Of a DNA stretch of 64,000 bases, positions 12,545 to 60,400 are shown piece after piece (within the stretch, counting starts at the first letter, position 1; the number at the start of each line of letters is the position of its first letter). Made by a program: the position numbers and the translations under genes. The DNA is from Elusimicrobiales bacterium. GTDB taxonomy: Bacteria > Elusimicrobiota > Elusimicrobia > Elusimicrobiales > UBA9959. The stretch lies in NCBI GenBank assembly GCA_041665305.1, contig JBAYJD010000008.1, forward strand, positions 9,209 to 73,208, read 5' to 3'. The notes under the pieces are model-generated. The model was given only the letters and a program-made list of their open reading frames with translations. It had not been told where the DNA came from and searched no databases.

Positions 12545-12545
12545 A

Positions 12546-13880: not shown

Positions 13881-13882
13881 CT

Positions 13883-14635: not shown

Positions 14636-14700
14636 TGTAAAGCTGTGTTTGCAAATAGAAGTAATTTGTGACATCAATAAAATTTTAAGGCGCTGATTTT

Positions 14701-16862: not shown

Positions 16863-16868
16863 TAATTT

Positions 16869-20277: not shown

Positions 20278-20284
20278 TATTTTT

Positions 20285-22368: not shown

Positions 22369-22409
22369 GATACCGCGATAATCAGGCAAGGTATAATTTA
22401 TATTCAACC

Positions 22410-23534: not shown

Positions 23535-23536
23535 TT

Positions 23537-44281: not shown

Positions 44282-44300
44282 CTGCCATAAAAATTGCTCC
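44282..44300 (+). promoter_or_regulatory. variant -24/-12 element, copy 1 (upstream of the sigma-54-like gene)
   Basis: CTGCCATAAAAATTGCTCC, i.e. TGCCAT-N5-TTGCT with the same spacing as TGGCAC-N5-TTGCW. Lies 39 nt before the ATG at 44339. Confidence 0.6.
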
Positions 44301-44338
44301 ATTTTCGCATAACGGCTATAATATGCGAGGGTGAGGCT

Positions 44339-45397
44339 ATGAGCAAATTCCATAAATTCGGTTTCAACCATTCCGCAAGAACTAAAGCGGCGGCTATGGG
44401 CGCTATGAAGCTGGCGCAGATGTCCGAAATGTCGGAAGGCGAATTTGAAAGCTTTCTGAAGAAGATCGAAGATAACCGTTTTTTTAAATTGCTTAAAGCA
44501 TCCGGCGCCGTCAGCCTGGCGGAATTCCCGAATGCGCGTTATGCCGCAAAAAAATACGCCGGCTACGGGCTTAAACTGTCCTCCGGAGGTCTGCCGGAAC
44601 TAGCCGACGGCAAAGGCGATCTGGTCGGCCTGATACAGGGTATAGGCCAGGAAAAATTTGAAACCTGCTTCCTGAAAGACGCGGCCATGAGTGACGTAGA
44701 GCGGGCAGAGGAATGCGACATAACCGTCAAAGACGCCGCCCGCCTGCGTGATTTCGTCAACCGCGCGTTTATACAGGCTGAATTTGAAAGCGCGCCCGAA
44801 GCTCCTGTGTCGGAAGTGTTCAGTGTCGTGGCCGGCATAGAGCTTGAAAACGGCAAGCCTCTCCTGGCGTTCTTTCACCGGGAAATCTGGAAAGGCTGTT
44901 ATAAAGTGGACGGGGAAAAACTTTCAGAAGCGTTGAAAGGCCTCCCCGCCTCTGAACAAACCGCCGTGGAAAAGCTTGTAAGGCGTATGGAACTGGCGGA
45001 CAAGCGAAAATCCACGCTTTACCGCGCGCTGGAAATAGTTATGGAGCGGCAAACCGAGTACCTGATAACCGGAGAGCCTGTGCGCAGGGCGCCGTTGCCG
45101 CAGAAAGTTCTGGCAGCGGAACTTGAAGTCCATCCCAGCGTTCTTAACCGGCTTATCTCAAATAAATCCATACAGATGCCTTGGGGCACCGAAGCGCCTA
45201 TGTCGGTGCTGCTGCCCAGCTCTAAAGCCATAAATTTAGAGCGGCTATACGCCATAGCCGTTGAAAATCCTGGTATGAACGACACTGAGTTGCGCGCCGA
45301 GCTTAAAATCCGCCACGGCGTAGAATTATCCCGCCAGTCCATAGTGCAATACCGCAAAGATTTATCATTGTCCAGGAATACTTCCAGCACGCTGTAA
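44339..45397 (+). CDS. short divergent sigma-54 (RpoN)-like factor
   Basis: The C-terminal half aligns by eye with RpoN. Pre-HTH region KRKSTLYRALEIVMERQTEYL. HTH LPQKVLAAELEVHPSVLNRLISNKSIQMPWG (compare MHESTISRVT..KY..TP.G). RpoN-box-like SRQSIVQYRKDL (compare ARRTVAKYR). N-terminus MKLAQMSEMSEGEFESFLKKIEDN resembles region I. About 352 aa against the usual ~450-500. Confidence 0.65.
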   Translation: MSKFHKFGFNHSARTKAAAMGAMKLAQMSEMSEGEFESFLKKIEDNRFFKLLKASGAVSLAEFPNARYAAKKYAGYGLKLSSGGLPELADGKGDLVGLIQGIGQEKFETCFLKDAAMSDVERAEECDITVKDAARLRDFVNRAFIQAEFESAPEAPVSEVFSVVAGIELENGKPLLAFFHREIWKGCYKVDGEKLSEALKGLPASEQTAVEKLVRRMELADKRKSTLYRALEIVMERQTEYLITGEPVRRAPLPQKVLAAELEVHPSVLNRLISNKSIQMPWGTEAPMSVLLPSSKAINLERLYAIAVENPGMNDTELRAELKIRHGVELSRQSIVQYRKDLSLSRNTSSTL

Positions 45398-45412
45398 AAC
45401 CCACTGTTGGGT

Positions 45413-45445
45413 TTCAAAATGAAAGCATTTATCTCAAAATGAGAT
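45413..45445. promoter_or_regulatory. enhancer-like repeat pair upstream of the lanthipeptide operon
   Basis: TCAAAATGA at 45414 and 45434 (20-bp phasing), ~100 bp upstream of the -24/-12 element at 45532. Confidence 0.5.
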
Positions 45446-45531: not shown

Positions 45532-45550
45532 CTGCCATGAAAATTGCTCC
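45532..45550 (+). promoter_or_regulatory. variant -24/-12 element, copy 2
   Basis: CTGCCATGAAAATTGCTCC. Lies 46 nt before the lanA1 ATG. Confidence 0.6.
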
Positions 45551-45595
45551 ATAGAAGGTGTAGGCGGTCAAAACAAGCTAAGGAGAACGAACCAA

Positions 45596-45688
45596 ATGAC
45601 TAAAGTACTTGAACTGCAGAAACTGGAAACCGGATCAGAGGGCGAGACCCGCTTGGGCAGTTGGATCAGCAACAGCTGCGGGCAATAG
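45596..45688 (+). CDS. class III lanthipeptide precursor (30 aa), absent from the ORF track
   Basis: MTKVLELQKLETGSEGETRLGSWISNSCGQ. RBS aaggag. Leader VLELQ motif. Core S-x-x-S-x-x-C. Confidence 0.8.
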   Translation: MTKVLELQKLETGSEGETRLGSWISNSCGQ

Positions 45689-45724: not shown

Positions 45725-45826
45725 ATGAACACGATACTTGAGTTGCAGAAACTGGAAGTAAAGTCGGAAAACGAGACTCGCGGGGGAAGCTGGATCAGCA
45801 ACTGCTGCGGCGGGCAGAACGAATGA
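45725..45826 (+). CDS. class III lanthipeptide precursor (33 aa), absent from the ORF track
   Basis: MNTILELQKLEVKSENETRGGSWISNCCGGQNE. RBS aggag. Leader ILELQ motif. Core SWISNCC. Confidence 0.8.
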   Translation: MNTILELQKLEVKSENETRGGSWISNCCGGQNE

Positions 45827-45838
45827 GCGGTAGGATAA

Positions 45839-45872
45839 CTCCGGAGGTGGGGAGATTCGGCCACCTCCGGAG
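45839..45872 (+). terminator. strong hairpin between precursor genes and lanKC (attenuator or mRNA stabiliser)
   Basis: Perfect 12-bp stem ctccggaggtgg / ccacctccggag with a 10-nt loop. No clear U-tract. Confidence 0.5.
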
Positions 45873-45889: not shown

Positions 45890-48556
45890 GTGGGTAATGA
45901 TATGAATAGCGCAAACAACTTGAATTACTACCTGTTCGCAGACAAACGGTTCTATGAGCCCATGGATTATTGCGTGGTAAATGAGGGCGATTATTTTGAT
46001 TTCGTCCGAAGCCAGGCTGATGCGGAATGGAAGTTTGTCAGAAGCGGTATCTGGATAAACTGTATATACCTTAAACATACGATGCCTCTTCAGGGCTGGA
46101 AAATACATTTGTCGGCGACTCATTCGGATTCTGAAGGCATTTTCAGCGCGGCGGCAGAGTTTCTTATGGCGAACAAGGTGACTTTTAAGTTCCTGTTAGA
46201 CAAAAAAACATTGGCGATAACCAATTCAAAAGGCTGGTCTCGCGGCGCTTCCGGGAAATTTATGACGGTGTATCCGACGGATCCGGAGCACTGCAAGTGG
46301 CTGCTGGAAAAACTGCATTCACTGACGGCGGATTTTTGCGGCCCGTATATCCTCTCTGATATGCGTTATAAAGACAGCAAAGTCCTGTACTACAGATATG
46401 GCGGATTCAGGCCGAATTTACGGCTTGATGTGAATGGGAAACGTATCCCGGTGCTGGTTTCCCCTGATGGAAAAGAGGAGGCCGATGTGCGGCCGCCGTA
46501 TTACCGTCTCCCCGGATGGGTGGATGAGATATTCCCGAAGAAGAATACAAATGAGTCTGGTGGCGGATTGAATAACGGGAGATATGCAGTTGAGAGATCT
46601 CTGCATTTCTCCAATACAGGCGGGATATATATCGCCTATGACAATATCGGGAAAAAAAGAGTTGTGCTGAAAGAGGCGCGTGCGCATGTCAACGCGTTCG
46701 CGGAAAATGTGGACGCCGCCAGAATGCTTAAGAGGGAGTATGATATCCTGAAAAAAGTCGGGAACTGCGGCATCGCGCCGGAGCCGGTTGAATTATTCAG
46801 GGAATGGGAGCACCTTTTCCTGGCGGAAGAATATCTGGAGGGTTATATCACGCTTCACGCTTTCGCCGCGCAGAACAGTATTCTGCTGGAGGCGCGCCCT
46901 ACCGAAGAGAAGGTTAAATCCTACCTGGAAAAATATATCGCAATTTTCAGAAAACTCGCGGGAATTATTGAGGCCCTTCATTCCCGGAATATCATATTCG
47001 GGGATTTTTCGGTCAATAATGTCCTGGTCAATCCCGCCACGCTGGATATAAAAATTATCGACCTGGAAGGGGCGCTTGTGGAGGGCGAGGAGGAAGCTTA
47101 TAAACTTTTTACACGCGGGTTTGCCGCCGTCGAGCAGGTCAAGGGGGCGGCGCCTACGCGGGAAAGCGATTATTACGCATTCGGCGCGATAATGCTGTAT
47201 ATGCTGACGCATATAAACGGGATTCTGGATTTAAAGCCTGATGCCGGAACTGAAGCATTGCAGATGGTGGGCCGGGATTTTGGCATACCTGTAAAGTTGA
47301 GAAGGATTATAAATACCCTCATGCACTCCGATCCCGCGAAGCGGCGGGGCCCGGGTGTTTTGCGCGATCAGAAGCAGGAAACTGCTTTAAGGAAGACATG
47401 CGCGGTCAGATTGTCCGCAGCTGCTCCCCGGTTGTCCAGGAAGTACATTACTGATACCGTGCGGTCGGCATGCAGCTTTATTGAATCGAGCGCGGACTAC
47501 GCCAGGAAAGACAGGCTCTTTCCCGCAGACCCGGAAATTTTTGAAACGAATCCGCTCAGTCTTGCGCATGGGGCCGTAGGGGTTCTTTATACATTATCAA
47601 AACTCGGACGCAAGCCTGCTCCCGAAATGCTGCAATGGGTGCGCCAGCATGAAATTTCCGGCAAAAATTGTCCGCCCGGCTTATATCCGGGAATGTCCGG
47701 CATAGCCTGGGGACTGCTTGAGCTTGGCGATAAGGCTGGCGCCGAGGCTGTGTTCGGTAAAACATTCAATTCCCCGCTTTTAGCTGTTTCTTCATCGCTG
47801 TATACCGGCCTGGCCGGTTGGGGGATGACCAATCTTAAGTTCTGGCTGGCCACCCGCAAGGAAATTTACCTGGACAATGCCAAAAAGGCGGGGGAAACAT
47901 TGCTTGATTCCGCGCGCAACGATTCTCACGGTGCGCACTGGCCTGATCAGGCCGGCAAAGTGCCTATCGGGCTGGCGCACGGAGCGGGAGGAATAGGTCT
48001 TTTCCTGCTGTATCTTTACGCGGCCACCGGCAATCAAAAATACCGGCAAAAAGCCGTGGAGGCATTGGATCACGACATCGCTTATGCCGATGCGTTCGGA
48101 AACGGTAATATGGCCTGGGCGAAGACAGCCGGAGAGAACGGGGCGCTTTACCCTTACTGGGAATACGGCAGCGCCGGTATCGGAATTGCCTGCCTGCGCT
48201 ATTTCAGCGTGTTAAAGGAACCTAAGTACATGAAACTTGTGGAAAAGATATATGAAAGCTGCGCGACAAAATATGCGATTTTCCCAGGAAGAAATATGGG
48301 CATGGCAGGTCTGGGCGAGTTTCTGCTTGACGCTTATGCCGTGACAAAAGACGTAAAATACCTCAATAGCGCGCACAGTGTCGCAAGCGGATTCAAACGT
48401 TTTGCGATACGAAGCCCAAAAGGCGTCGCGTTCCCCGGCGACGGTCTGGCACGGATAAGTTGTGATTACGCCGCCGGGATGAGCGGGATCATACTGTTCC
48501 TCGACCGGCTGGTGTCAGGCCGGCCTGCGGATTTTATGCTTGATGAATTGCTTTAA
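45890..48556 (+). CDS. class III lanthipeptide synthetase (LanKC: lyase-kinase-cyclase)
   Basis: Central kinase-like VVLKEARAH, FGDFSVNNVLVN, IIDLEGA. C-terminal LanC-like GxxG repeats (SLAHGAVG, GMSGIAWG, GLAGWG, GLAHGAGG). The Zn-ligand positions read WEYGSAG and GRNMGMAG rather than WCxG and CHG, as expected for class III. Start is GTG 45890 or ATG 45902. Confidence 0.85.
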   Translation: MGNDMNSANNLNYYLFADKRFYEPMDYCVVNEGDYFDFVRSQADAEWKFVRSGIWINCIYLKHTMPLQGWKIHLSATHSDSEGIFSAAAEFLMANKVTFKFLLDKKTLAITNSKGWSRGASGKFMTVYPTDPEHCKWLLEKLHSLTADFCGPYILSDMRYKDSKVLYYRYGGFRPNLRLDVNGKRIPVLVSPDGKEEADVRPPYYRLPGWVDEIFPKKNTNESGGGLNNGRYAVERSLHFSNTGGIYIAYDNIGKKRVVLKEARAHVNAFAENVDAARMLKREYDILKKVGNCGIAPEPVELFREWEHLFLAEEYLEGYITLHAFAAQNSILLEARPTEEKVKSYLEKYIAIFRKLAGIIEALHSRNIIFGDFSVNNVLVNPATLDIKIIDLEGALVEGEEEAYKLFTRGFAAVEQVKGAAPTRESDYYAFGAIMLYMLTHINGILDLKPDAGTEALQMVGRDFGIPVKLRRIINTLMHSDPAKRRGPGVLRDQKQETALRKTCAVRLSAAAPRLSRKYITDTVRSACSFIESSADYARKDRLFPADPEIFETNPLSLAHGAVGVLYTLSKLGRKPAPEMLQWVRQHEISGKNCPPGLYPGMSGIAWGLLELGDKAGAEAVFGKTFNSPLLAVSSSLYTGLAGWGMTNLKFWLATRKEIYLDNAKKAGETLLDSARNDSHGAHWPDQAGKVPIGLAHGAGGIGLFLLYLYAATGNQKYRQKAVEALDHDIAYADAFGNGNMAWAKTAGENGALYPYWEYGSAGIGIACLRYFSVLKEPKYMKLVEKIYESCATKYAIFPGRNMGMAGLGEFLLDAYAVTKDVKYLNSAHSVASGFKRFAIRSPKGVAFPGDGLARISCDYAAGMSGIILFLDRLVSGRPADFMLDELL

Positions 48557-48566
48557 GGAGAATCCA

Positions 48567-50117
48567 ATGTTTAAGAATATGCGGCTTATTGTTCGGCCTT
48601 ATACAACCTCGTTTACCCTCGCATTGGCGGGCGTGGTCGCTATGGATGCGGTCATGAGCCTGCTCAATCCGCTTTTATTGAAATACATATTTGATGAGGG
48701 AGTGATAAAAAAGGATTTCAGGCTGTTTATTGTGGTTACTGTCGGGTTTATGATCCTTGCGACCTTATTCCGGTTGTTCTCTTTATGGAACAACCTTTAC
48801 GTGCAGGATCTGAAAAACAGAATACTTAAACGGCTTATAGGAAGCATGCTGGAAAGCTACTATAAAATGCCGTATATACAGGTCATGAAGAATAAAACCG
48901 GCTATTATACCTCAAGGATTTATGACGAGCCGCTGAGCGCCTCATCCACGGCGATAGATCTCGCTTTCGCGGTATGCCCGGCCGCTGTTTCGTTTCTTGT
49001 GGCGTTTGGGGTTGTTGTTTTCTTGTCGATCAAAGCCACGTTTGCGCTGGTGCTTACGGTGCCGTTCCTTATAATGCTCGCAAATAAATACCATTCCGAG
49101 ATCAAGCAGCATTCCCGCGACGAAAAAGAGGGGGAGGGCGAGTTGCGCGGCGTTATAACCGGTTCTGCGGAATCATATCGTACCGTCAACCTGTTCGGCC
49201 TGCATTCCGCGGTGCTGTCAAAAATTAACGAGAAGTTCGAAAAGTACACGACAAGTCTTAATGCCCGTGTCAGAAACAGCGCAAAACATAACACTTATGG
49301 CGCTATTTTCATGTCCTACGGCGAAATGCTGGTTATAATCGTCTGCGGATACGCGATTTTGAAAGGGGAGATGAGTTTCGGGGGATTCATGGCTTTTATG
49401 AACGCATTCTGGCTTGCCGTCGGCAATATGAGAACGCTTGTGCAGAAAATACCTGAATTCTCACGGAACTCAATGGCGTTGCATCGGTTGGCGGAGTTCG
49501 GCATGCCAGCTTCAGAAGCGGCTGGTACCGGCGGTGGAACCGGGATCGGCGCAATTACACTTGAAAACGTGGGGTTCAGCTATGGTGATAAGCAAGTATT
49601 TTCAAACCTGAGTTTCAGCGCGGGCAAAGGCGAAAAATTGCTGCTAAGCGGCAAGAACGGCTCCGGAAAATCCACGGTGGCGAATATGCTCTCCGGATTC
49701 CTCGCGCCGGATAATGGGACCGCGCGGATTCTGGGCGTTGAAAAGACCAGCGCCTGCGTCTCCCCGCATCACTTCGCGCCTGGCACATTACGCGACAACC
49801 TGAAATTCGATAGCCATACGGACGAACAGCGCCGATACCTGAATGGCGTGCTGGCGGACTTCAAGCTGACGGAAAGTCTTGATAAGAGCCCTGATGCGCT
49901 GTCCGCCGGGCAGAAGAAAAAGGCCGAGATCGCTATGGGGTTGATGAAAGACGCTGAATTGTTTCTGTTCGACGAACCTCTCGCCAACGTGGACGTGGAG
50001 AGCAAGCCGATAATAATGGAGCATATCTTTAACCGGACCAAAGATAAAATCCTGGTAGTTGTAATGCATGGGGATGATGAATTCCGTGGGCAGTTTACCA
50101 GGATGGTGAGTTTATGA
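48567..50117 (+). CDS. ABC transporter, fused permease/ATPase (peptide exporter)
   Basis: Six N-terminal TM helices. Walker A GKNGSGKST, signature LSAGQKKK, Walker B LFLFDEP. RBS aaggag. Confidence 0.85.
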   Translation: MFKNMRLIVRPYTTSFTLALAGVVAMDAVMSLLNPLLLKYIFDEGVIKKDFRLFIVVTVGFMILATLFRLFSLWNNLYVQDLKNRILKRLIGSMLESYYKMPYIQVMKNKTGYYTSRIYDEPLSASSTAIDLAFAVCPAAVSFLVAFGVVVFLSIKATFALVLTVPFLIMLANKYHSEIKQHSRDEKEGEGELRGVITGSAESYRTVNLFGLHSAVLSKINEKFEKYTTSLNARVRNSAKHNTYGAIFMSYGEMLVIIVCGYAILKGEMSFGGFMAFMNAFWLAVGNMRTLVQKIPEFSRNSMALHRLAEFGMPASEAAGTGGGTGIGAITLENVGFSYGDKQVFSNLSFSAGKGEKLLLSGKNGSGKSTVANMLSGFLAPDNGTARILGVEKTSACVSPHHFAPGTLRDNLKFDSHTDEQRRYLNGVLADFKLTESLDKSPDALSAGQKKKAEIAMGLMKDAELFLFDEPLANVDVESKPIIMEHIFNRTKDKILVVVMHGDDEFRGQFTRMVSL

Positions 50118-50126
50118 TGCGGTTTT

Positions 50127-50205
50127 CTCATTTTGAGAAAAGAGATCCCATAAGTTTTCATTGATGGGGTTTGTCAAAATGAGAGTAAGTATCTTAAAAT
50201 GAAAC
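50127..50205. promoter_or_regulatory. enhancer-like repeat array upstream of the second precursor operon
   Basis: Palindrome TCTCATTTTGAGA (50127-50139), TTTCATTGA (50157), TCAAAATGA (50174), TTAAAATGA (50194). The last two are 20 bp apart. The array ends ~87 bp before the promoter. Confidence 0.55.
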
Positions 50206-50280: not shown

Positions 50281-50299
50281 CTGCCATAAAAATTGCTCC
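50281..50299 (+). promoter_or_regulatory. variant -24/-12 element, copy 3
   Basis: CTGCCATAAAAATTGCTCC. Lies 43 nt before the ATG at 50342. Confidence 0.6.
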
Positions 50300-50341
50300 G
50301 TAGTGGGTGTAAGTGCAGAAAACCACTAAAGGAGAACTTAA

Positions 50342-50509
50342 ATGAACGCAATGCAGATGAACCTTAACAATACGGACGAAAATAACTTCACTTCCGGGTT
50401 CAACCGTGCGCCTGAGTTGGAGGATGTGTTTATGTCTGGTTTCAACCGCGCGCCAGAGCTGGAAGAGAGTTTTACTTCCGGTTTCAATCGCGCTCCCGAA
50501 CTGGCCTAA
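50342..50509 (+). CDS. repeat-containing RiPP precursor (55 aa), absent from the ORF track
   Basis: MNAMQMNLNNTDENNF-TSGFNRAPELEDVF-MSGFNRAPELEESF-TSGFNRAPELA. RBS aaaggag. Three 14-codon units with SGFNRAPEL invariant while 8 of its 9 codons differ synonymously between units. Confidence 0.8.
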   Translation: MNAMQMNLNNTDENNFTSGFNRAPELEDVFMSGFNRAPELEESFTSGFNRAPELA

Positions 50510-50566: not shown

Positions 50567-51703
50567 ATGACAAAACCATTTTTCTCTTATTCCACTCCAC
50601 GAATAAACAGCCTTGTATTCAAGCTGGTGGACTATTGCAATCAAGGTTGCACTTATTGCTACCGTGAAAACGACAAAGAGCGTCCAGTGCGCATAATGTC
50701 AGATGAACTGATAGAAACTACTATCGTGAAATATATAGATTTTCTTAAGTCCAAAGGAAACGCCCGCAGCGTAGTATATCTGATCTGGCATGGCGGGGAG
50801 CCATTGCTGGCAGGAATCAGTAAGTTCAGGACGATAATGGAAATACAGGCGCAGCTTGCGGCCAGGTATGAGGTCGGTTTTGTGAATTCCGTGCAAACCA
50901 ATGGGGTCTATATTGATGAGGAATGGGCAAAGTTCTTCAACGAAAACAGGTTCCTGGTCGGGGTGAGCCTGGACGGCCCTAAGCAGATTCATGATATCTA
51001 CAGAAAAAACAAAGGCGGAGTTTCCACCTTCGCGGAGACGATGCGCGGGATCAAATTGCTGCAAGCGCACAAAATAAAAACTAATCTTATCGGTGTTGTA
51101 ACCAATGAGAGCGCTCCGCACGCCGATATGATGTATGAGTTTTTCAGGGATTTTGGCGTGCAGGACATAGACCTCATCCCTTGTTTTGATTATAACGATC
51201 CGCTTACCTTGTCGCCGGAGCTGTACCGCGCTTTTATGGTTACGATTTTTAAGCGGTGGCGTTCGGACGGATTTGCGCCGCTGAGAATAAGGTTCCTTTC
51301 CGATGTTTTGAAAAAGATCTCGGTGCTGCGTTCCGGCGGTTGCGCTACTATAGGCTGCGAGCTTATGGGCGGCTGCGGGCAGAACTGGTCCATAGGCGTG
51401 GAAGGGGAAGTATATCCGTGCGAGTGCCTCACCCCGATAAAGCGCATGGAGCTGGGAAATATTATGGAATCTTCTTTTGAAGGGCTCATGTCCTGCGGCG
51501 CTTTCACTAACGTGAAATCGGAGAACAATGATATCGCGCAAGATTGCCGCGACTGCGACGTGCTGGCGGTATGCCGGGCAGGCTGCCTCAACAGGCGTCT
51601 TAAGGATTATAAACTTGACGGGAAAAGGGACCCTTACTGCCTTGCCCGCCGTGACGTGATCAAACTTGCCCTGGAGGATGCGTATGCAATCCCGGCTAAA
51701 TAA
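50567..51703 (+). CDS. radical SAM/SPASM-domain peptide maturase
   Basis: CNQGCTYC (CxxxCxxC), WHGGEPLL. C-terminal Cys clusters GGCATIGCELMGGCGQ...YPCEC and CRDCDVLAVCRAGC typical of SPASM auxiliary clusters. Confidence 0.85.
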   Translation: MTKPFFSYSTPRINSLVFKLVDYCNQGCTYCYRENDKERPVRIMSDELIETTIVKYIDFLKSKGNARSVVYLIWHGGEPLLAGISKFRTIMEIQAQLAARYEVGFVNSVQTNGVYIDEEWAKFFNENRFLVGVSLDGPKQIHDIYRKNKGGVSTFAETMRGIKLLQAHKIKTNLIGVVTNESAPHADMMYEFFRDFGVQDIDLIPCFDYNDPLTLSPELYRAFMVTIFKRWRSDGFAPLRIRFLSDVLKKISVLRSGGCATIGCELMGGCGQNWSIGVEGEVYPCECLTPIKRMELGNIMESSFEGLMSCGAFTNVKSENNDIAQDCRDCDVLAVCRAGCLNRRLKDYKLDGKRDPYCLARRDVIKLALEDAYAIPAK

Positions 51704-52877
51704 AAACGCCTGGTTATTGTTGTCAGCCGTAGCCATTTCATCCGTAGGGGATTGGCTCAATATCCTTGCCCTGATTACTGTGTTTAGCAAGGCGTATGGG
51801 GCGGCAAGCGTGGCATTCCTGATGGCGATGCGGGCTGTTCCCGGCGTCCTGCTGGGGCCGTGGGTTGCCAATCACATAGATCGCTTTCAGAAAACACGCG
51901 TACTCATTTTTTTAAGCGTCGCTCAGGCAGCCCTGGCGTTAACATTGGGCGTTCTCTCTGACCGTTGGGCGCTTCTCGGCGCGGCGGCGGCGCTTTCCAC
52001 GCTTAATTTGTTCTCCGCCCCTTTGATCAAGGCTCTCCTCCCCACGGTATGCAACTCCGCATCGCTTAGCCGCGTGAATTCGTATTTCGCATCTATACAG
52101 TCAAGTTCCTATGTTCTGATACCGCTTCTTAGCGGGGTGCTGATATCAATCTTTGGCCCGGCGGCATGTTTTAATATAGATGCGGCGACATTTGTCGTCT
52201 TTGGCGTAATGATCGCAGCTGTGCATGTTTCTGATGCGGGGCGTGTCGGCGTTCAGGGGGGGGCGGTAGAGTCCGGGAGTCTCTTCAGGGATCTGCTAAA
52301 TACGCCTGATCTAAAGCGGACATTGTTTGCTTTTGCAGTGGCGGGATTTTCACTGGGGACGATCTACTCGGTGGAGATTTCTTTTTTCGCCAAATACCTG
52401 AATGTAGATCCTCGCGGTTACGGAAGCTTTGTGGCGATCGCCGGCGCGGGTGTGTTGATGGGATCCCTGCTCTGCGGGCGGTTTACGGCTTCGGCAACGC
52501 TTGAGCGGGTGTTTGTAGCGGGGCTTGCCTTATTCGGGACAATGACGGTGCTCTTTTCTTTTAACCGCAGTTTGGTTGTGGCGATCGGGTTGATTATGCT
52601 GTCAGGATTCGGAGAGGGCCTGTTTTCCGTTTCAGGCACCATCCTCGTCCAATTACAATCGCGCGCGGACCGGTTGGCCGGAAATTTTACACTGCTTGGC
52701 GTTTTGTCCAAGAGCTTCAGTCTTTTTGCGATGCTTGTAGCCGCAATGTTTATGGATTACATGCAGCCGGCAGGATTGTTGCTTGTGGCGGGGCTGGTTG
52801 CATTGGGTGTAGCTGCGGTATGGGGCGTAACAAAAGCTCAGGTCAGCAATGTTGCTGCGCCAAAATGCGCCGAATGA
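51684..52877 (+). CDS. MFS transporter (putative peptide exporter)
   Basis: 12 predicted TM helices. N-terminus LLLSAVAISSVGDWLNILAL typical of the MFS_3/EntS-like group. Overlaps the rSAM 3' end. RBS ggagg. Confidence 0.75.
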   Translation: MQSRLNKNAWLLLSAVAISSVGDWLNILALITVFSKAYGAASVAFLMAMRAVPGVLLGPWVANHIDRFQKTRVLIFLSVAQAALALTLGVLSDRWALLGAAAALSTLNLFSAPLIKALLPTVCNSASLSRVNSYFASIQSSSYVLIPLLSGVLISIFGPAACFNIDAATFVVFGVMIAAVHVSDAGRVGVQGGAVESGSLFRDLLNTPDLKRTLFAFAVAGFSLGTIYSVEISFFAKYLNVDPRGYGSFVAIAGAGVLMGSLLCGRFTASATLERVFVAGLALFGTMTVLFSFNRSLVVAIGLIMLSGFGEGLFSVSGTILVQLQSRADRLAGNFTLLGVLSKSFSLFAMLVAAMFMDYMQPAGLLLVAGLVALGVAAVWGVTKAQVSNVAAPKCAE

Positions 52878-52904: not shown

Positions 52905-52983
52905 GCTCATTTTGAGATAGTAGTTTTGTCTAATCTTCATTGAAAGGATTTTCAAAATGAAAATGTTTATATCAGAATGATAG
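52905..52983. promoter_or_regulatory. enhancer-like repeat array upstream of the third precursor operon
   Basis: GCTCATTTTGAGA (52905), CTTCATTGA (52935), TCAAAATGA (52952), TCAGAATGA (52972). Same order and near-identical spacing as the array at 50127-50205. Confidence 0.55.
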
Positions 52984-53069: not shown

Positions 53070-53088
53070 CTGCCATAAAAATTGCTCC
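53070..53088 (+). promoter_or_regulatory. variant -24/-12 element, copy 4
   Basis: CTGCCATAAAAATTGCTCC. Lies 40 nt before the ATG at 53128. Confidence 0.6.
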
Positions 53089-53127
53089 GTAGGAGGCGTA
53101 AGCAGACATAATATACGGAGGATACAA

Positions 53128-53304
53128 ATGAAACGGATAACGATCAAAATAGCAATAGCGGGGATATCGGCTTTGTTTATAATGGCAGTTTTACTGAAGC
53201 CGCAGCACTTGACTGGCGGCGAGGCCAGCAAAAAGCAGACCGTAGTTCACTATACCAGCGTTGGAGTGTTTCCCAATTCGCCGCTGTTCTATGCGGAGAA
53301 CTAA
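53128..53304 (+). CDS. small peptide (58 aa) with hydrophobic N-terminus, candidate precursor or secreted peptide
   Basis: MKRITIKIAIAGISALFIMAVLLKPQHLTGGEASKKQTVVHYTSVGVFPNSPLFYAEN. RBS acggagg. The longer track ORF from 53056 would begin inside the promoter element. Confidence 0.6.
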   Translation: MKRITIKIAIAGISALFIMAVLLKPQHLTGGEASKKQTVVHYTSVGVFPNSPLFYAEN

Positions 53305-53529: not shown

Positions 53530-53730
53530 ATGACGAACAAAGATAAAGTGATTGTATCGTTCCTGGTGTCCATCGGGATATTTTCTTCCGCCCAAGCGGT
53601 TCGCTATGTTAAGACTCTTGAAATTAGTGAGAAGAACTCCATGATATCCGTGGCCAAACTATCTAATTCCGGCATAGTTCTTTGTGAAGATTCTACCAGT
53701 CGTTCCGGTTTAGATAATCATAAAGGATAA
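53530..53730 (+). CDS. small protein (66 aa) with signal-peptide-like N-terminus, translationally coupled to the radical SAM gene
   Basis: MTNKDKVIVSFLVSIGIFSSAQA... RBS aaggag. Its TAA overlaps the ATG of the next gene (TAATG). Confidence 0.55.
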   Translation: MTNKDKVIVSFLVSIGIFSSAQAVRYVKTLEISEKNSMISVAKLSNSGIVLCEDSTSRSGLDNHKG

Positions 53731-54629
53731 TGGATGGGCACGCTTTGGGGCAGACCGTCGATATTCGTAAGCTAGGAATAGTTGTCGGTACCGCATGCAA
53801 TTTTAATTGCAGCCATTGCTTGATCAAGAAGGAAGACAGGCGTGAACGACTGTCTCTGAAAGAGGTTCGGCTATTGTGCGATACGGTGGCCAGATATCGT
53901 CCGAAGTCGATTTTGTTCACCGGAGGGGAACCGACCTTTTGGATCAAGGAAATAAACGAAATTATTTCCTCCCACCCTTGCCCTGAAAACCTTAAAATCA
54001 CTTTGACCACTAATGGCCATTTCGCAGGGTCGGTCTCTTTGGCGAAGAAGGTGCTCTCCTCGTTTACCAGACTTGATTATGTGCAATTGTCGTATGATGT
54101 TTTCCATAAAATCTTCCTGTCGTTTTCAAAAGCTAAAAATCTTCATTCAGCGTGTACGGAGTTGCGGGTCGGTTTCAGCGCGATTCTAACGATGTCGTCT
54201 CCGTTGGACCTGCTTCTCGTTAAACAGTTGCGAAGTTTCGGGCGGTTCAAGATAGGGGTGCAAAAGGTCGCTAGTATTGGAGAGGCGAAGAGAAACGGCA
54301 TTCGGTTCATCTTCCCATGCTTTGACGAGAAAGTACTCTCTAAATATTGTCCCAACAGGAACAGTCTCGGGTATATTTGCGGACGCGGATTCTCGATCTG
54401 TTGTGCGGAACTGGCCTTTAATAATTCTATGCCCGGGGTGTTTCACTCAACGCTGGGTGAACATTTGGCCAGTCCTTTATACGGATTGATGCGGAAACAC
54501 AATTTTGCGGAACTGATGAAAATATTGCGGGTACCTAAAAAGTCCCTGCTGCCGGATCATTCCTCGGAGTGTGTGCTGTGCGACCATATTTTTAAAAATG
54601 CCAGGAGGAAAGTGCGGTTGACGCCGTAA
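53730..54629 (+). CDS. radical SAM protein with C-terminal Cys-rich (twitch/SPASM-like) region
   Basis: CNFNCSHC (CxxxCxxC), FTGGEPTF. C-terminal CPNRNSLGYICGRGFSICC and CVLC. Confidence 0.8.
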   Translation: MDGHALGQTVDIRKLGIVVGTACNFNCSHCLIKKEDRRERLSLKEVRLLCDTVARYRPKSILFTGGEPTFWIKEINEIISSHPCPENLKITLTTNGHFAGSVSLAKKVLSSFTRLDYVQLSYDVFHKIFLSFSKAKNLHSACTELRVGFSAILTMSSPLDLLLVKQLRSFGRFKIGVQKVASIGEAKRNGIRFIFPCFDEKVLSKYCPNRNSLGYICGRGFSICCAELAFNNSMPGVFHSTLGEHLASPLYGLMRKHNFAELMKILRVPKKSLLPDHSSECVLCDHIFKNARRKVRLTP

Positions 54630-54636
54630 ATCGTGT

Positions 54637-55332
54637 ATGAAATCAAACCCCCGTCTTGTTCAGAAGGAAAAAGGAAAAATAACCTATCAAATGCCGGATT
54701 TTACCCGGCTTAATACTTCGGCGATAGATAAGCTTGCCTGGCCGAAGGAAATCCCGGTCTTGTGGCTGAAATACTACGAAAACCTCGACGGCTGCTACGA
54801 GGCGTTGGATAAAAGGATATCCCGCAAATATATCGTGCGGGTAATATACTCCGCCGATAAGAAAGATATTCATTTGAAGGGGAGAAAGGAATCTGCCTGC
54901 GCGATAAAAGCCAGGGAATCGCTTACAACGGCGGAATTATTGGCACTATATCTTGAAACACATGCTAAATCCTTTATCGCGCCGTGGGCCGGACAACTTG
55001 ATAGTAAATATATAGACGAGGTTTCCTCGTTCATTAAAGAAGATCTGCCGATCTCAAAGTCGTTGAGCTTCTTTAAGGATAAATCCCCAGTGGGATTGGT
55101 GCTCCTGACGGAGTTAGGCAGCGGAGCTGGGCTTATTTCATGGATATGGTTCGCGCCGTCTTTAAGCATTGCTGAAAGACGGAAAGCGCACAATCTCTTT
55201 GCCGCCTGGCTGAGGAACGGGAAATATCCGCAAATTAAAAGTGTCGTTCATTCTTTCAACCTGCGCTCTAACAGATTCTTTATAAAAATGGGATTCCATA
55301 CTCAATGCATTGCTATCACCAGACGAAGCTGA
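54637..55332 (+). CDS. GNAT-family acetyltransferase-like protein (tentative)
   Basis: C-terminal pattern GLVLLTEL...ISWIWFAP...RRKAHNLFAAWL...NLRSNRFFIKMGF resembles GNAT motifs A/B. The N-terminal half is unassigned. Confidence 0.5.
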   Translation: MKSNPRLVQKEKGKITYQMPDFTRLNTSAIDKLAWPKEIPVLWLKYYENLDGCYEALDKRISRKYIVRVIYSADKKDIHLKGRKESACAIKARESLTTAELLALYLETHAKSFIAPWAGQLDSKYIDEVSSFIKEDLPISKSLSFFKDKSPVGLVLLTELGSGAGLISWIWFAPSLSIAERRKAHNLFAAWLRNGKYPQIKSVVHSFNLRSNRFFIKMGFHTQCIAITRRS

Positions 55333-56711: not shown

Positions 56712-58864
56712 AAATTATAGGCCGGGCTTTTTCTTATAACTGGAAATACTACAGCGCGGCGGTGGCCGTGTTTGTGGTTTTCTGGCAGATGTTTTCCGTG
56801 TTCTCTGCCGTGCGCGTAGCTGATGATAATCTGCTAACCGCCATGCGGCAGAATGCGGCCTATTTTGAAAAAGCATTTCTTAAAGGTGATGTGTTTGAGA
56901 CTCAGCGCATAATGTGGCGCATAAAGAACGACAATATAAAGCACATAACATTCCACCCCACTGAGTTTAACGGCAGTAAGTGGATATTTAAAGAGGCCAT
57001 AATCGGGAATATTTACGACAGACCTCGCGCGCAGCTAACGTGCAATGTGCCTTTTATATCAAATGGCGCAGTGCTTGGCCAGCTGGAATATGTTATAGAT
57101 CTGGTGGATGTCAACGCTGTCGTCTTCGGTGAGAACTATATTTTATTTATAACCATAGTGGCTTTTTTTATGGGCCTTTTGTTTCTGTCCAATGTCGGGG
57201 CTATTAAAACTATTTTCAGCATAGAGCGCTGTGTTACAGAAACAAACGCTCTGGTCGATGCCGGTAAACACGCCGACATTCAGGATTCTATACAACGCAG
57301 CATCCAGTTGCTGCCGCAAAGTTTGCGCGATACACCATTCGCCGTGTTGATAAGCGGGTTGGCGGAAGTGCTGAAAAAAGCCTCCCGTCTTGAAAGTGAC
57401 CTTGCTGTTTCAAAAGCCACATCTGATATGGCGGTGCAAGTGGCGCATGACATTCGGTCGCCGCTGGCGGCGTTGGATACAGCGCTGAATAAAACTGATC
57501 AGCTCCCGGAACAACAGCGCATTATGGTGCGCCATGCGGTGAACCGGATACGCGATATCGCCAACAATCTCCTTGAAAAGAACCGGCAGCAGGCCAAAAC
57601 CTCTTCAGTGGCCATATCCCAGCCCACTGATGCCCGCGAAGCTCAGGAAACGCGCCTGCTTTCAAGCGCTATAGACCCGGTTATAACCGAGAAACGCCTG
57701 CAATTTGAATCAAAGCCGGGAATAAACATTGATTTTGAGCTGACAAAGGAATCTTACGGCTTGTTCGCTAAAATACAGCCGGTGGAATTCAGGCGCATAA
57801 TTTCAAATCTTGTGAATAATGCCGTTGAAGTGTTGGGCGATCAAGGCAAGGTCTCCGTAGGCTTGGGCCAGGATGCCGGGAATATTGTTTTAACTGTCGC
57901 CGATAACGGCAAAGGCATTCCGGCTGAAATACTGGCGAAACTCGGCCAGAGGGGAGAAACGCACGGGAAGGCTGGCGGATCGGGTCTGGGGCTTTTCCAT
58001 GCAAGAACAACAGTGGAAAGTTTGGGTGGCAGTCTTGCGATAGCTTCCGAAGTAGGCAAAGGCACGACGATTACAATAAAATTGCCCAGGGCGGAGGCTC
58101 CAAATAATTTTGTGCCTGTGCTTGAACTTGTTCCCGGCCGGCCCGTGGTAGTCTTGGATGATGACGCTACAATACACCAGATCTGGGATGGCCGGTTTGA
58201 GTCCGCCAGGGTTCAGGAGCGCAATATCGAAGTAATTCATTTCAGCGAGCCGGATAAACTGCGCGAATGGGTTAAAACCAACACGGCAAAGGCCGAAAAA
58301 GCGGTTTATCTGTTTGACTATGAGTTGATCGGTTATAAAGAAACGGGACTTAGCCTTGCCGAAGAGCTGGGGATATGCGGCACGACAATATCTGTGACCA
58401 GCCGTTACGACGAGAAACGCATAATTGATGAGTGCAAGCGTCTTAAAGTGCGGATGATCCCCAAGGGGCTGGCAAGCCTTGTGCCGATAGCCATCCAAAA
58501 GCCTGATGCAAAACCGGAAGCAGTGCCTCCCTCCGGCCAGGTAGACGCCGTTTTAGTTGATGATGATAAATTGGCCCGCATGAGTTGGGAAATGGTCGCC
58601 AAGGCAAAAGGCGTAAACCTGGTTGTCTTCGACAATCCGGGCGATTTCCTCGCCCGTATAGAGGAATTCCCCAAAGAGACGCCTGTTTATCTTGATTCCG
58701 AGCTGGACGACGACCAGGAAAACGGCGTTAAAGGCCAGAATATAGCCGTGGATCTGCACAACAAAGGCTATGCCGATATCACGCTTGAGACCGGCCACAT
58801 GCCGGAAGATTTCGCCCACTTGCCCTGGCTTAAAGTGATAGACAAAACTCCGCCCTGGAGTTAA
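56705..58864 (+). CDS. membrane sensor histidine kinase with two C-terminal receiver-like domains
   Basis: TM, ~130-aa periplasmic loop, TM. H-box VAHDIRSPLAAL. NLVNNAVEV, DNGKGIP, GGSGLGLFHA. Then VVVLDDD...LFDYEL and AVLVDDD...YLDSEL modules. Confidence 0.85.
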   Translation: MVKIIGRAFSYNWKYYSAAVAVFVVFWQMFSVFSAVRVADDNLLTAMRQNAAYFEKAFLKGDVFETQRIMWRIKNDNIKHITFHPTEFNGSKWIFKEAIIGNIYDRPRAQLTCNVPFISNGAVLGQLEYVIDLVDVNAVVFGENYILFITIVAFFMGLLFLSNVGAIKTIFSIERCVTETNALVDAGKHADIQDSIQRSIQLLPQSLRDTPFAVLISGLAEVLKKASRLESDLAVSKATSDMAVQVAHDIRSPLAALDTALNKTDQLPEQQRIMVRHAVNRIRDIANNLLEKNRQQAKTSSVAISQPTDAREAQETRLLSSAIDPVITEKRLQFESKPGINIDFELTKESYGLFAKIQPVEFRRIISNLVNNAVEVLGDQGKVSVGLGQDAGNIVLTVADNGKGIPAEILAKLGQRGETHGKAGGSGLGLFHARTTVESLGGSLAIASEVGKGTTITIKLPRAEAPNNFVPVLELVPGRPVVVLDDDATIHQIWDGRFESARVQERNIEVIHFSEPDKLREWVKTNTAKAEKAVYLFDYELIGYKETGLSLAEELGICGTTISVTSRYDEKRIIDECKRLKVRMIPKGLASLVPIAIQKPDAKPEAVPPSGQVDAVLVDDDKLARMSWEMVAKAKGVNLVVFDNPGDFLARIEEFPKETPVYLDSELDDDQENGVKGQNIAVDLHNKGYADITLETGHMPEDFAHLPWLKVIDKTPPWS

Positions 58865-59034
58865 CCCTTTAAATCCTTCTCAAGCCGGGACAGGCAATCC
58901 ATGATATCCTGCCCCGCTTCTTTCATAAGGGCAAGCAATTCCAGCTTTTTCTCAAGCGTGCAGGTCTTGAACATTTCCGCGATTGTTTTAAGGCTCGTGC
59001 ATTGCGAGCGTATCTTGTGAAGCGGCTTTTCCAT
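58861..59034 (-). CDS. small helical protein, possible Hpt-like phosphorelay component (speculative)
   Basis: MEKPLHKIRSQCTSLKTIAEMF... has a His in an HxxxxS-like context resembling Hpt helices. Sits between the kinase and the regulator. Start ambiguous (59034-59079). Confidence 0.3.
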   Translation of the reverse strand: MEKPLHKIRSQCTSLKTIAEMFKTCTLEKKLELLALMKEAGQDIMDCLSRLEKDLKG

Positions 59035-59038
59035 TTTG

Positions 59039-60400
59039 TTATTTTCTTCCATCCGGTTCATCGCCCTTGTTCGGTCCAAATTTCTTTAACCTGGCATAAA
59101 GCAGGTTGGTGGAGATCTTAAGATTGGCCATTACCTTGCTTTTGTTGCCGTTGTTCTCCTGCATATTGCGGCGGATTATCTCGTAGGTGAACAGTTCGGA
59201 CGCGGCGTCCAGGCCGTTTTTTACGGCGTATTTATACTGCGCGTTCGTAAGGAACCCGCCTGGCGGCAGGGGGTTAAGTTCCTGCGAAAGGTGCTTACGG
59301 ATAGTTTCAAGCGTGACGCGGTTTCCCGTGCCTGAAACAAGCAGGTCCACCAGCTTCTTCAATTCCCGGATATTGCCCGGCCATTCGTATTGGAGCATGA
59401 AAGTTCTGGCGTCCGGCGCAAATGATAATTGCCGTGCCCCGCTCGTGAATTGCCGTATGAGGGGGAAAATATCGCAGGAGCGTTCGCACAACGGCTTAAG
59501 GTTGACGGTCAGGCCGTGTATGCGCTGAAAGAAGTCCAGCCGCAGTTTCCCTTGCGTTATAAGCGCCTTAAGGTCTTCTAGCGTGGCGCTGATTATCCTG
59601 AAATCGGAACGCTCCGGTTTGTCGGAGCCCAGCGGGTAAAACGATTTCTCCTCAATGGCTTTAAGCAGCTTGGTCTGCATATTAAGGCTCATAGAACCTA
59701 TTTCATCCAAAAACAATGTGCCGTTGTTGGCCTGCAAGAGTCGGCCCTTTCTGTTTTCATTTGCCCCGGTGAATGCGCCTTTCCTGTAGCCGAACAATTC
59801 GGCTTCCATCAATTCCTCGGTATAGGCCGAGCAATTCATGGCGACGAATTCGCCGGAACGTCCGGAATATTTGTGAATTATCCGGGCCAGGCAGGTTTTT
59901 CCTGTGCCGGTTGGCCCAAGGATAAGGATAGGGGAGCCGGAGGCCGCGTATTTAAGCGCTTCGGTGACATTGGCGCGCGTTGCCGGGTCTTCGGTTATAA
60001 ATTCCTCGGAGAAGACTTTATTGAGGTTCCCGCTTTTGCCGCGCTGCAGGTATTTGGCGATAACCGCGCTGATATTGGCTTTCTCGTTGCCTTTGATATA
60101 GAAATCGTCGCAGCCGAGTTCATAGGCCTTATTTATGATATCGTCGGAATCCGAGCTTGTCATGACCACGGAGTAAAACCCTTTTGATCTGGCGTCCGCG
60201 ATAAGTTTTAAACCCGAATAATCATCATCAAGCCCCAGCATCAGGTCCAGGAAGCATAGGTCATAAGAACCGCCGGCCAGTTTTTTCCTGGCGGTCTTTG
60301 TATCTTTTGCGAAGTCCACGGCATGGCCTGTCAACTGGGCCGCCATGACCGCCTGCGCCGGATTTTCGTCTTCAACCACCAGAATCTTCAGTTTGTCCAT
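59039..60400 (-). CDS. sigma-54-dependent response regulator (NtrC-type enhancer-binding protein)
   Basis: Receiver ILVVEDE...CFLDLML. AAA+ Walker A GPTGTGKT, intact GAFTGA loop, Walker B LFLDEIG, EWPGNIREL. C-terminal Fis-type HTH KSKVMANLKISTNLLYARLKKFG. Confidence 0.9.
   Translation of the reverse strand: MDKLKILVVEDENPAQAVMAAQLTGHAVDFAKDTKTARKKLAGGSYDLCFLDLMLGLDDDYSGLKLIADARSKGFYSVVMTSSDSDDIINKAYELGCDDFYIKGNEKANISAVIAKYLQRGKSGNLNKVFSEEFITEDPATRANVTEALKYAASGSPILILGPTGTGKTCLARIIHKYSGRSGEFVAMNCSAYTEELMEAELFGYRKGAFTGANENRKGRLLQANNGTLFLDEIGSMSLNMQTKLLKAIEEKSFYPLGSDKPERSDFRIISATLEDLKALITQGKLRLDFFQRIHGLTVNLKPLCERSCDIFPLIRQFTSGARQLSFAPDARTFMLQYEWPGNIRELKKLVDLLVSGTGNRVTLETIRKHLSQELNPLPPGGFLTNAQYKYAVKNGLDAASELFTYEIIRRNMQENNGNKSKVMANLKISTNLLYARLKKFGPNKGDEPDGRK

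Follow-up and report, generated by a model that had tools for sequence, protein, structure and literature searches.

Among sigma factors, sigma-54 has the reputation of being the most uniform: there is one per genome, its RpoN box is invariant and its GG/GC promoter is universal. The stretch of DNA considered here, 64,000 nucleotides from an Elusimicrobiales bacterium (contig JBAYJD010000008.1, positions 9,209 to 73,208; hereafter the window), raises the question of whether this recognition system can be rewritten in nature, on the protein and on the promoter alike. It carries a gene for a short sigma-54-like protein with an altered RpoN box, in a cluster with promoter-like elements that read GC at -24. 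We consider it probable that the protein is a minimal member of the sigma-54 family, dedicated to its cluster and dependent on an activator, whose -24 specificity has been naturally reprogrammed from GG to GC. The gene is placed as follows:

44339..45397, + strand: short sigma-54-like gene, 352 aa (open reading frame, domain and model evidence)

The coding sequence starts with an ATG that has GGTGAGG just 5' of it. A TTG at 44294 was considered as an alternative start and rejected, since it falls within a -12 element and homologues begin at the ATG. At 352 aa the product falls 125 aa short of E. coli RpoN (477 aa), and the 11 canonical RpoN sequences that we fetched range from 431 to 525 aa, which bears out the original prediction, made from the letters of the window, that the protein is 100-150 residues shorter than RpoN. 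The peptide strings quoted there (AMKLAQMSEMSEGEFESFLKKIEDN, HPSVLNRLISNKSIQMPWG and SRQSIVQYR) are all present. Profile searches, which could have left the sigma-54 assignment without a significant domain, returned Pfam Sigma54_DBD (PF04552) at residues 218-345 (E=6.8e-11; 42.6 bits versus a cut-off of 22.8). The significant DNA-binding domain occupies the C-terminal 135-150 residues; hhalign aligns it with residues 333-474 of E. coli RpoN, and a family profile searched against the PDB finds A. aeolicus and E. coli sigma-54 chains (5ui5 and 5nwt included) at 2e-12 to 1e-6. The NCBIfam equivalog for rpoN, TIGR02395, gives 42.2 bits, below its cut-off of 277.

Within this domain, the RpoN box of the window protein, SRQSIVQYR, is aligned by both HMMER and hhalign with E. 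coli A454-RRTVAKYR-462, and both place Q333 at the position of R456. The canonical box ARRTV[AT]KYR is found in all 11 of the canonical sequences, and the window protein departs from it with glutamine at the R456 position. This position has been studied by Liu et al. (NAR 2025), who randomised R455 and R456 of E. coli sigma-54 along with the -24 hexamer (PMC12096077). It sets the second base of the -24 GG: the wild type prefers GG, R456Y/M/W/F prefer GC, R456H prefers GA and R456L prefers GT, and these variants are mutually orthogonal (PMC12096077). The same authors call the arginine '100% conserved', with no other residue found in nature (PMC12096077). Because Q333 aligns with R456, the natural change falls on a residue and a base that experiment has already linked. 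Elsewhere in the domain, R223 is invariant across the family and aligns with E. coli R336, a residue known for keeping the closed complex silent, and the helix-turn-helix (HTH) motif HPSVLNR is conserved and aligns with E. coli HESTISR. The conservation of R223 and HPSVLNR, which align with the -12 readers, fits the unchanged -12 TTGC of the elements described below.

Related segments also occur in two plasmid genes annotated 'GIY-YIG nuclease family protein' (NZ_CP065407.1 68809-69366 and NZ_AP018720.1 97052-97594), at 27-30% identity to residues 176-344. Since this segment is sigma-54 DNA-binding-domain-like, the module is found outside sigma factors too.

What, then, would such a protein read? 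A 19-mer, CTGCCATRAAAATTGCTCC, occurs four times in the window, always on the + strand (at 44282, 45532, 50281 and 53070), and not once in 100 shuffles. Each copy is intergenic, co-oriented with the gene that follows and 41-48 nt 5' of its start codon, with the ribosome-binding site (RBS) and start next in line. Its core, TGCCAT-N5-TTGCT, follows the geometry of sigma-54 promoters (GG-N10-GC), yet it reads GC-N10-GC: the -24 bases are GC in 4/4 elements, as originally predicted, with the N10 spacing and the -12 TTGC retained. The canonical TGGCAC-N5-TTGCW was found in no intergenic region of the 64-kb window, which also holds no GG promoter and no paralogue of RR type (that is, with arginine at the R455 and R456 positions). 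The elements, together with the palindromes upstream of three of them, are these:

44283..44298, + strand: P1, TGCCATAAAAATTGCT, a -24/-12-type element 41 nt 5' of the ATG of the sigma-like gene
45412..45442, + strand: enhancer-like sites for P2, two TCAAAATGA palindromes (TCA-N3-TGA) at -119 and -99 from the -24 element
45533..45548, + strand: P2, TGCCATGAAAATTGCT, heading the class III lanthipeptide operon
50126..50202, no strand assigned: enhancer-like sites for P3, TCAAAATGA at 50128-50136 (-) and 50174-50182 (+), with a degenerate copy near 50194
50282..50297, + strand: P3, TGCCATAAAAATTGCT, heading the second operon for a ribosomally synthesised and post-translationally modified peptide (RiPP)
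52905..52980, no strand assigned: enhancer-like sites for P4, TCAAAATGA at 52907-52915 (-) and 52952-52960 (+), with TCAGAATGA near 52972
53071..53086, + strand: P4, TGCCATAAAAATTGCT, heading the operon that ends in sensor genes

Two or three TCAAAATGA palindromes thus lie at each of P2-P4, at about -95 to -165, and of the seven exact copies in the window (0.56 expected) six are at these promoters. A scan for sigma-70 promoters returned 27 sites where 20.7 +/- 4.9 are expected by chance (within ~1.3 sd), none of them convincing in the P1-P4 leaders. Terminator-like sites are somewhat above chance (34 versus 22.0 +/- 4.2 expected), with none informative for P1-P4, and an Rfam scan of the cluster found no known RNA families.

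Several other sequences keep company with these elements. About 25 nt 3' of P1, at 44318-44326, stands ggcTATAATat, which recurs in the same place in loci L003, L007, L010, L012 and L023; in loci that have no -24/-12 element before the sigma-like gene, the TATAAT part alone is kept. The combination suggests basal sigma-70 transcription plus autoregulation. Just 3' of the -12 element is a conserved block, TTGCTC[CT]GTAGnGGGyGTArGC, present in GG-type and GC-type promoters alike; it lies at 44299-44325, 45549-45570, 50298-50320 and 53087-53110 in the window, and in related loci as well. A further block, TTyCCCAATrG, is found some 45-55 bp 5' of the -24 element. Either block might serve as an initial transcribed region or a leader, or as a site for an integration host factor (IHF)-like protein or a second regulator.

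Do box and promoter vary together among relatives? The family consensus box is SRRS[VI]AQYR (also SRRSxAQYR); in the window protein, as in the relatives closest to it (86-92% identical), the box reads SRQS[IV][VGA]QYR. When 86 loci were scanned with the two -24 bases left free, those with an SRR box yielded 71 TGGCA sites and one TGCCA site (a palindromic overlap), and those with an SRQ box yielded nine TGCCA sites and no TGGCA site. The promoters of the RR-box relatives read TGGCAT-N5-TTGCT, with GG invariant in 81 other sites. For the nearest RR relatives, L009 and L010, whose proteins are 77-78% identical, the orthologous intergenic regions can be aligned with those of the RQ set, from which they differ at exactly the second G. 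Lesser differences between RQ and RR promoters appear in position-frequency tables at the base before TG and in TTGCTC[T/C]. The two types can also be compared within one genome: in the metagenome-assembled genome (MAG) CAZYFL01, the RQ copy L006 goes with a GC promoter and the RR copy L010 with a GG promoter. In MAG UBA9634, two RQ copies each stand at the head of a radical-SAM RiPP operon that has a GC promoter, and this genome holds a third paralogue with the RR-type box SRRSINQYR. The protein/DNA co-variation that had been proposed for the window is therefore seen across loci, RR boxes going with TGGCAT and RQ boxes with TGCCAT, and a member of a separate RQ clade repeats the pairing. The altered box itself needs narrowing. 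Relative to ARRTVAKYR, the A-to-S, T-to-S and K-to-Q changes are family-wide and coexist with GG promoters; the R-to-Q change alone tracks the promoter switch.

The enhancer-like sites change as well. TTCA-N2-TGAA, at -80 to -120, accompanies 33 of 82 GG promoters and none of 10 GC promoters, whereas TCA-N3-TGA accompanies eight of 10 GC promoters and four of 82 GG promoters, so that enhancer type co-varies with promoter type. In one example, the putative recognition helix in the C-terminal HTH of the activator reads ISTNLLYARLKK in the window and ISTRLLYATLKK in activators from RR (GG-type) loci, a difference that may go with the change in half-site spacing from N2 to N3.

How isolated is this departure? 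For 137 family representatives we tabulated the residues at the R455/R456 positions and built a neighbour-joining tree without the box columns. RR is found in 117, LR in five and RQ in four; PR, RH and VR occur twice each, and QQ, RW, PH, CR and RS once each. At least 16 changes at the two arginine positions are needed on this tree, where the RQ clade of the window is nested in an Elusimicrobiales RR clade, and P0136 (RQ), P0137 (RQ), P0132 (RW) and P0128 (QQ) fall in a separate clade. One further protein, P0113, from a 1.9-kb contig that is too short to show a promoter, has the identical SRQSIVQYR box. The proteins nearest to it (71% and 67% identical) have SRR-type boxes, and its identity to the window protein is only 50-62% whichever region is compared, so its box is convergent. 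A metagenome was scanned for a longer P0113 contig and gave RR-type relatives and a frameshifted SRQSITQYR contig (L121), with no usable promoter. Where flanking DNA was available, the variant loci offered the following candidate elements:

P0136 (L135): box SRQTIWQYR, 38% identical to the window protein; TGCCATAAAAATTGC, in the divergent region between the activator operon and a TrbC-like gene
P0137 (L139): box SRQSIWNYR; TGCCAT-CTTTT-ATGA, in the place equivalent to the P0136 site
P0132 (L138): box SRWSAMQYR; TGTTGC-CGAAA-TTGA, in the place equivalent to the P0136 site
P0128 (L141/L143): box SQQSISVYR; TACCAG-GAAAG-TTGCTCC, in the place equivalent to the P0136 site
P0180 (L136/L137): box SRHLVQIYR; TGTCAC-CAAAA-TTGCC, 60 nt 5' of the gene after its sigma-activator operon

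At the P0136 locus, TGCCATAAAAATTGC matches exactly over 15 nt, and 75-115 nt upstream of it stand two TTTGC-N4-GCAAA palindromes. The other candidates are single sites aligned by eye and are suggestive only. All of the candidate elements depart from GG where the arginines depart. For the more distant high-GC relatives, in which the first arginine varies (SCRS, SLRS, SSRS, SARS and SRPS boxes), promoters were sought with relaxed -24/-12 patterns and by enumeration of gapped dyads; both recovered only coding-sequence conservation (in the GAFTGA-coding region) or GC-rich noise. We advance, tentatively and as a serious possibility, the broader view that a large unrecognised family of minimal sigma-54 factors exists, each wired to its own activator and kinase much as extracytoplasmic function sigma factors are to their anti-sigma factors, whose -24 recognition has been reprogrammed repeatedly via the two arginines. 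The same view would yield a readable code: RR-GG and RQ-GC, and possibly QQ-AC, RW-TT and RH-GT.

The loci of the RQ/RW/QQ clade have features of their own. Their sigma/activator module faces a TrbC/TraC-type operon (type IV secretion or conjugation-like; L135 34-357, L141 4688-8262, also L143) and no RiPP cluster, and in L135 and L138 the sigma and kinase genes are separated by a SET-domain gene. In L141 (11191-11261; also L139 at ~7150-7290) the stretch between the variant sigma-54-like gene and the next operon contains a purine riboswitch aptamer of the 2'-dG-II type (RF03165; 80 bits versus a gathering score of 60) and, after it, an 11-bp terminator-like hairpin. In L139 this operon encodes a 65-aa peptide and a radical SAM enzyme, and compensatory changes are seen between L139 and L141. 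A TGGCAC 3' of the RQ-type sigma gene in L139 was considered as a GG promoter; it sits in the loop of the 11-bp hairpin after the riboswitch-like element and is therefore not counted.

To what kind of family does the window protein belong? There are 238 close homologues of 340-360 aa, 52-91% identical, with PF04552 as their sole Pfam domain; those with a named source are all from Elusimicrobiota, and most are annotated 'hypothetical'. An exhaustive profile search extended this to 248 cluster representatives (E<1e-30, matched over their full length, 340-390 aa), which include Endomicrobia and Candidatus Aerophobetes. In 10 distant members, again only the DNA-binding domain was found. Our literature search found no paper describing this short sigma-54-like family of Elusimicrobiota and Aerophobetes, which is undescribed and is defined here by a length of ~340-390 aa, full-length similarity, PF04552 only and an adjacent REC-AAA+ activator; the window protein fits this description, except that its activator, in the same cluster, is 13.6 kb away rather than adjacent. 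In two entries, P0121 (914 aa) and P0122 (839 aa), the sigma-54-like part forms the N-terminus of a far longer protein; these may be fusions with the downstream solute-binding gene or gene-calling artefacts.

An ortholog of the window activator (52-65% identical, full length) adjoins the sigma-like gene in ~60 of 79 genome loci. It is usually divergent from that gene, and in more distant members the operon order is activator, ~65-aa H-box protein, sigma. Genes for a histidine kinase and an SBP_bac_5 protein often lie close by, those for LanKC or radical SAM enzymes are common in the neighbourhood, and the sigma/activator pairing held in every variant locus examined that had flanking DNA. A conserved protein of 59-72 aa with a motif resembling an H-box (LVHDI..KC..LK) always accompanies the gene for the REC-AAA+ activator (window 58861-59079 (-), L003 8294-8473, L135 1940-2128, L141 9807-10004); it may relay phosphate from the long kinase to the activator by histidine phosphotransfer. 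The sigma-like gene, activator and sensor thus form a dedicated module. In the window, the remaining parts of the cluster are arranged as follows:

45596-45688 and 45725-45826, + strand: two lanthipeptide precursors, which we take to be class III, with ILELQ-type leaders and SxxSxxC cores read from the sequence
45902-48556, + strand: LanKC-type synthetase (RamC_N, Pkinase and LANC_like)
48540-50117, + strand: ATP-binding cassette (ABC) exporter, P2 operon
50342-50509, + strand: 55-aa precursor with three SGFNRAPELE repeats, P3 operon
50567-51703, + strand: radical SAM/SPASM enzyme, P3 operon
51666-52877, + strand: major facilitator superfamily (MFS) transporter, P3 operon
53129-53304 and 53530-53730, + strand: small open reading frames of the P4 operon
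53730-54629, + strand: second radical SAM enzyme, P4 operon
54637-55332, + strand: unknown protein, P4 operon
55305-56711, + strand: solute-binding-like protein, in a position that matches the SBP_bac_5 genes of related loci
56705-58864, + strand: histidine kinase, 719 aa, last gene of the P4 operon
58861..59079, - strand: H-box-like protein, 72 aa, homologous by position and sequence to the ~60-65 aa open reading frame after the activator gene elsewhere, and a candidate phosphotransfer protein
59039..60400, - strand: enhancer-binding protein with REC, Sigma54_activat AAA+ (GAFTGA intact), lid and C-terminal HTH; the sole GAFTGA protein in the window

A perfect 12-bp GC-rich hairpin, CTCCGGAGGTGG...CCACCTCCGGAG (45838-45871), separates the second lanthipeptide precursor from the LanKC gene; it is likely an attenuator setting the ratio of precursor to enzyme. 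The 55-aa precursor, with three tandem F(T/M)SGFNRAPELE repeats encoded by 42-nt DNA repeats at 50378-50504, looks like a multi-core RiPP, and its aromatic-x-x repeats are reminiscent of cyclophane-forming systems. Elsewhere in the window, at 12000-24000, is a long run of co-oriented genes with a G+C content of 0.42-0.49, compared with 0.55-0.63 in the flanks.

From these parts we can sketch how the module might work. The window protein would bind core RNA polymerase (RNAP) through a reduced core-binding region and form closed complexes at P1-P4. The REC-AAA+ activator would probably be phosphorylated through the solute-binding protein, the histidine kinase and the small H-box protein, a chain whose order we draw from gene content and conserved gene order only. 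The activator would bind the TCA-N3-TGA palindromes ~95-165 bp upstream of P2-P4 and use ATP to open these promoters, turning on the class III lanthipeptide operon, the radical-SAM RiPP operon and the sensor operon. Expression of the sensor genes from P4 would constitute positive feedback, and P1 would provide autoregulation of the sigma gene. The switch from R to Q and from GG to GC, together with the altered spacing of the enhancer half-sites, would insulate the module from paralogous RR-type modules, which can be present in the same genome.

Is the rest of the protein that of a sigma factor? A comparison by hhalign with the 11 canonical RpoN sequences is collinear over the full length (Prob 98.7), with the score driven by the C-terminus. 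Residues 27-52 resemble E. coli 24-50 (LLQLS...E.NPLLE of region I; E=0.009, probability 4%), and residues 117-144 resemble E. coli 230-257 (E=0.003) and 155-186 (E=0.006), the two HTH-like core-binding-domain repeats; these matches are weak, and the Gln/Leu-rich first half of region I is not recognisable. The region-I-like N-terminus described in the original prediction thus stands as a weak local match, and no Pfam AID match accompanies it. An AlphaFold2 (AF2) model lays the protein out as region-I-like helices (12-55), a reduced, core-binding-like helical block (64-149), a three-stranded sheet or beta hairpin (163-190) resembling E. coli YVIPDVLVRKHNGHWTVELN, a long helix (204-237), an HTH (255-273) and a three-helix RpoN domain (295-342) that includes SRQSIVQYR. 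When this model was compared with the PDB by Foldseek, the best 25 matches were all sigma-54 chains (259-420 aligned columns). The N-terminal half has 33 invariant columns among 20 family sequences, and its core-binding region is about half the canonical size. On our reading, these data suggest that region II is absent and that one of the two core-binding repeats is kept, in an N-terminal half that is weakly and collinearly sigma-54-like. Because the similarity is weak, we infer core-RNAP binding rather than observe it.

It is important to note what counts against a reprogrammed, dedicated sigma factor. Neither Sigma54_AID (PF00309) nor Sigma54_CBD (PF04963) matches the 352-aa protein even at E<=10, and a PDB search with the N-terminal profile gave no hit at E<=10 either. 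The N-terminal halves alone give only short local hhalign matches, in the correct order and with probabilities of 4-11%, and the mean model confidence (predicted local distance difference test, pLDDT) is moderate at 72 for the whole protein and poor at 57 for the N-terminal half modelled alone. Core binding and dependence on the activator are both predictions. P1 has no TCA-N3-TGA enhancer-like sites upstream. The well-sampled RQ/GC set is one clade, the independent repeats amount to one site each, and the -12 half in L139 is non-canonical (ATGA). The natural RH variant has a GT candidate, whereas engineered R456H prefers GA. Moreover, the list of seven E. coli mutants that lost GG-promoter recognition does not include R456Q (PMC12096077), so an RQ sigma may still read GG and any insulation could be one-sided or partial. 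Finally, a tblastn search with E. coli RpoN against all fetched loci matched only the DNA-binding domain of the short proteins, and this sample is far too small to conclude that canonical rpoN is absent from these genomes.

The main rival explanation takes the first of these points at face value: the protein would be a stand-alone DNA-binding regulator (a repressor, anti-activator or recruiter) acting on -24/-12-like operators, with another sigma factor transcribing the genes. Only the DNA-binding domain is detectable by Pfam, NCBIfam and PDB sequence searches, the core-binding region is half-sized, and similar segments occur in the plasmid GIY-YIG proteins. A regulator of this kind, however, does not call for an N-terminal half that is strongly conserved and collinear with sigma-54 in region I, in one core-binding repeat and in the beta hairpin, nor for the invariant arginine at the R336 position. 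The DNA sites keep the exact -24/-12 geometry at a fixed orientation and start-codon distance, in leaders with no convincing sigma-70 promoter, and the conserved neighbour is a GAFTGA AAA+ activator, a kind of protein with no known target but sigma-54. Elusimicrobium minutum, the sole cultured Elusimicrobium analysed, is reported to be without canonical sigma-54 and its activators (PMC3162934). We therefore regard a non-sigma regulator as quite unlikely.

A different objection grants that the protein is a working sigma factor and holds that the R-to-Q and GG-to-GC changes drifted together neutrally in a lineage that has no other sigma-54-type factor, with no insulation involved. This would suit a promoter-rich RQ set confined to one clade, a window with no RR-type paralogue or GG promoter, and the absence of R456Q from the list of mutants that lose GG recognition. 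It is harder to reconcile with CAZYFL01, where RQ and RR paralogues (L006 and L010) each have their own promoter type, or with UBA9634, where two RQ copies coexist with SRRSINQYR. All nine promoters of the clade have switched, against an otherwise invariant GG, the enhancer spacing has changed too, RQ re-arose in other clades (once as the identical box), and the two arginine positions have changed at least 16 times in the family. We judge co-drift unlikely. That the open reading frame might be a decaying rpoN remnant and the 19-mer a mobile or repeat element can be regarded as effectively refuted: the protein is short and far under the rpoN equivalog cut-off, as a remnant would be, yet it has same-length homologues by the hundreds (238 at 52-91% identity; 248 representatives at E<1e-30) and a conserved gene neighbourhood, and every copy of the motif is intergenic and co-oriented, with an RBS and ATG after it. 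We therefore retain the cluster-dedicated minimal sigma-54 with a reprogrammed -24 specificity as the best explanation. The original prediction is supported with three corrections, namely that R-to-Q is the only box change that tracks the promoter switch, that the N-terminal similarity is weak, and that the orthogonality of the sigma/promoter pair is a prediction.

The locus and its relatives provide natural counter-examples to the stated invariance of R456, with a matching promoter change, and these sit in a protein that is below E. coli RpoN in size by about 25%, as self-contained sigma/activator/kinase modules on RiPP clusters. If our explanation is correct, the family defines the minimal parts of sigma-54, shows how a sigma/promoter pair diverges after duplication and offers natural orthogonal, signal-gated expression parts. 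The promoter motif and the activator would be a direct handle for switching on silent RiPP clusters of uncultured Elusimicrobiota. Should the more tentative view of repeated reprogramming also hold, it would overturn the published view of R456 and TGGCA as evolution's only solution to sigma-54 recognition, and would supply ready-made, mutually orthogonal, activator-gated sets of sigma, promoter and enhancer.

How, finally, does this module compare with known systems? Like canonical sigma-54 (RpoN/SigL; PF00309, PF04963 and PF04552), the window protein has a C-terminal long helix, HTH and RpoN domain, a -24/-12 promoter with N10 spacing and a -12 TTGC, an associated GAFTGA AAA+ enhancer-binding protein and palindromes ~100 bp upstream. 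It differs in its length (352 aa versus 431-525 aa), in having no acidic region II, in having one recognisable core-binding-domain repeat of the two and a region I that is only partly similar, and in pairing SRQSIVQYR with a -24 GC where the canonical factor pairs ARRTV[AT]KYR with GG. In addition, one canonical sigma serves many activators, whereas members of the short family stand ~1:1 with an adjacent activator and several paralogues per genome are possible. The engineered E. coli variants R456H/Y/L involve the same residue position and the same promoter base, and R456Y/M/W/F likewise prefer GC (PMC12096077). These are laboratory mutants of a full-length sigma-54, whereas the glutamine in the window is natural, recurrent and set in a shorter scaffold, and R456Q itself is not reported as orthogonal among the engineered variants (PMC12096077). 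The RpoN paralogues of Rhodobacter sphaeroides and Bradyrhizobium offer a natural parallel, with several per genome, distinct promoter sets and dedicated activators; the reported differences between their promoters are at -11/-12, not at the -24 GG, and the proteins are full-length with an intact ARRTVAKYR (cited in PMC3162934 and PMC12316311). By analogy only, cluster-situated sigma factors of the extracytoplasmic function (ECF) type, found with secondary-metabolite clusters, are also small and dedicated, lie in or near their cluster, are autoregulated and have a private motif. They belong to sigma-70 group IV and are controlled by anti-sigma factors, whereas the window system would be driven by an ATP-consuming enhancer-binding protein.

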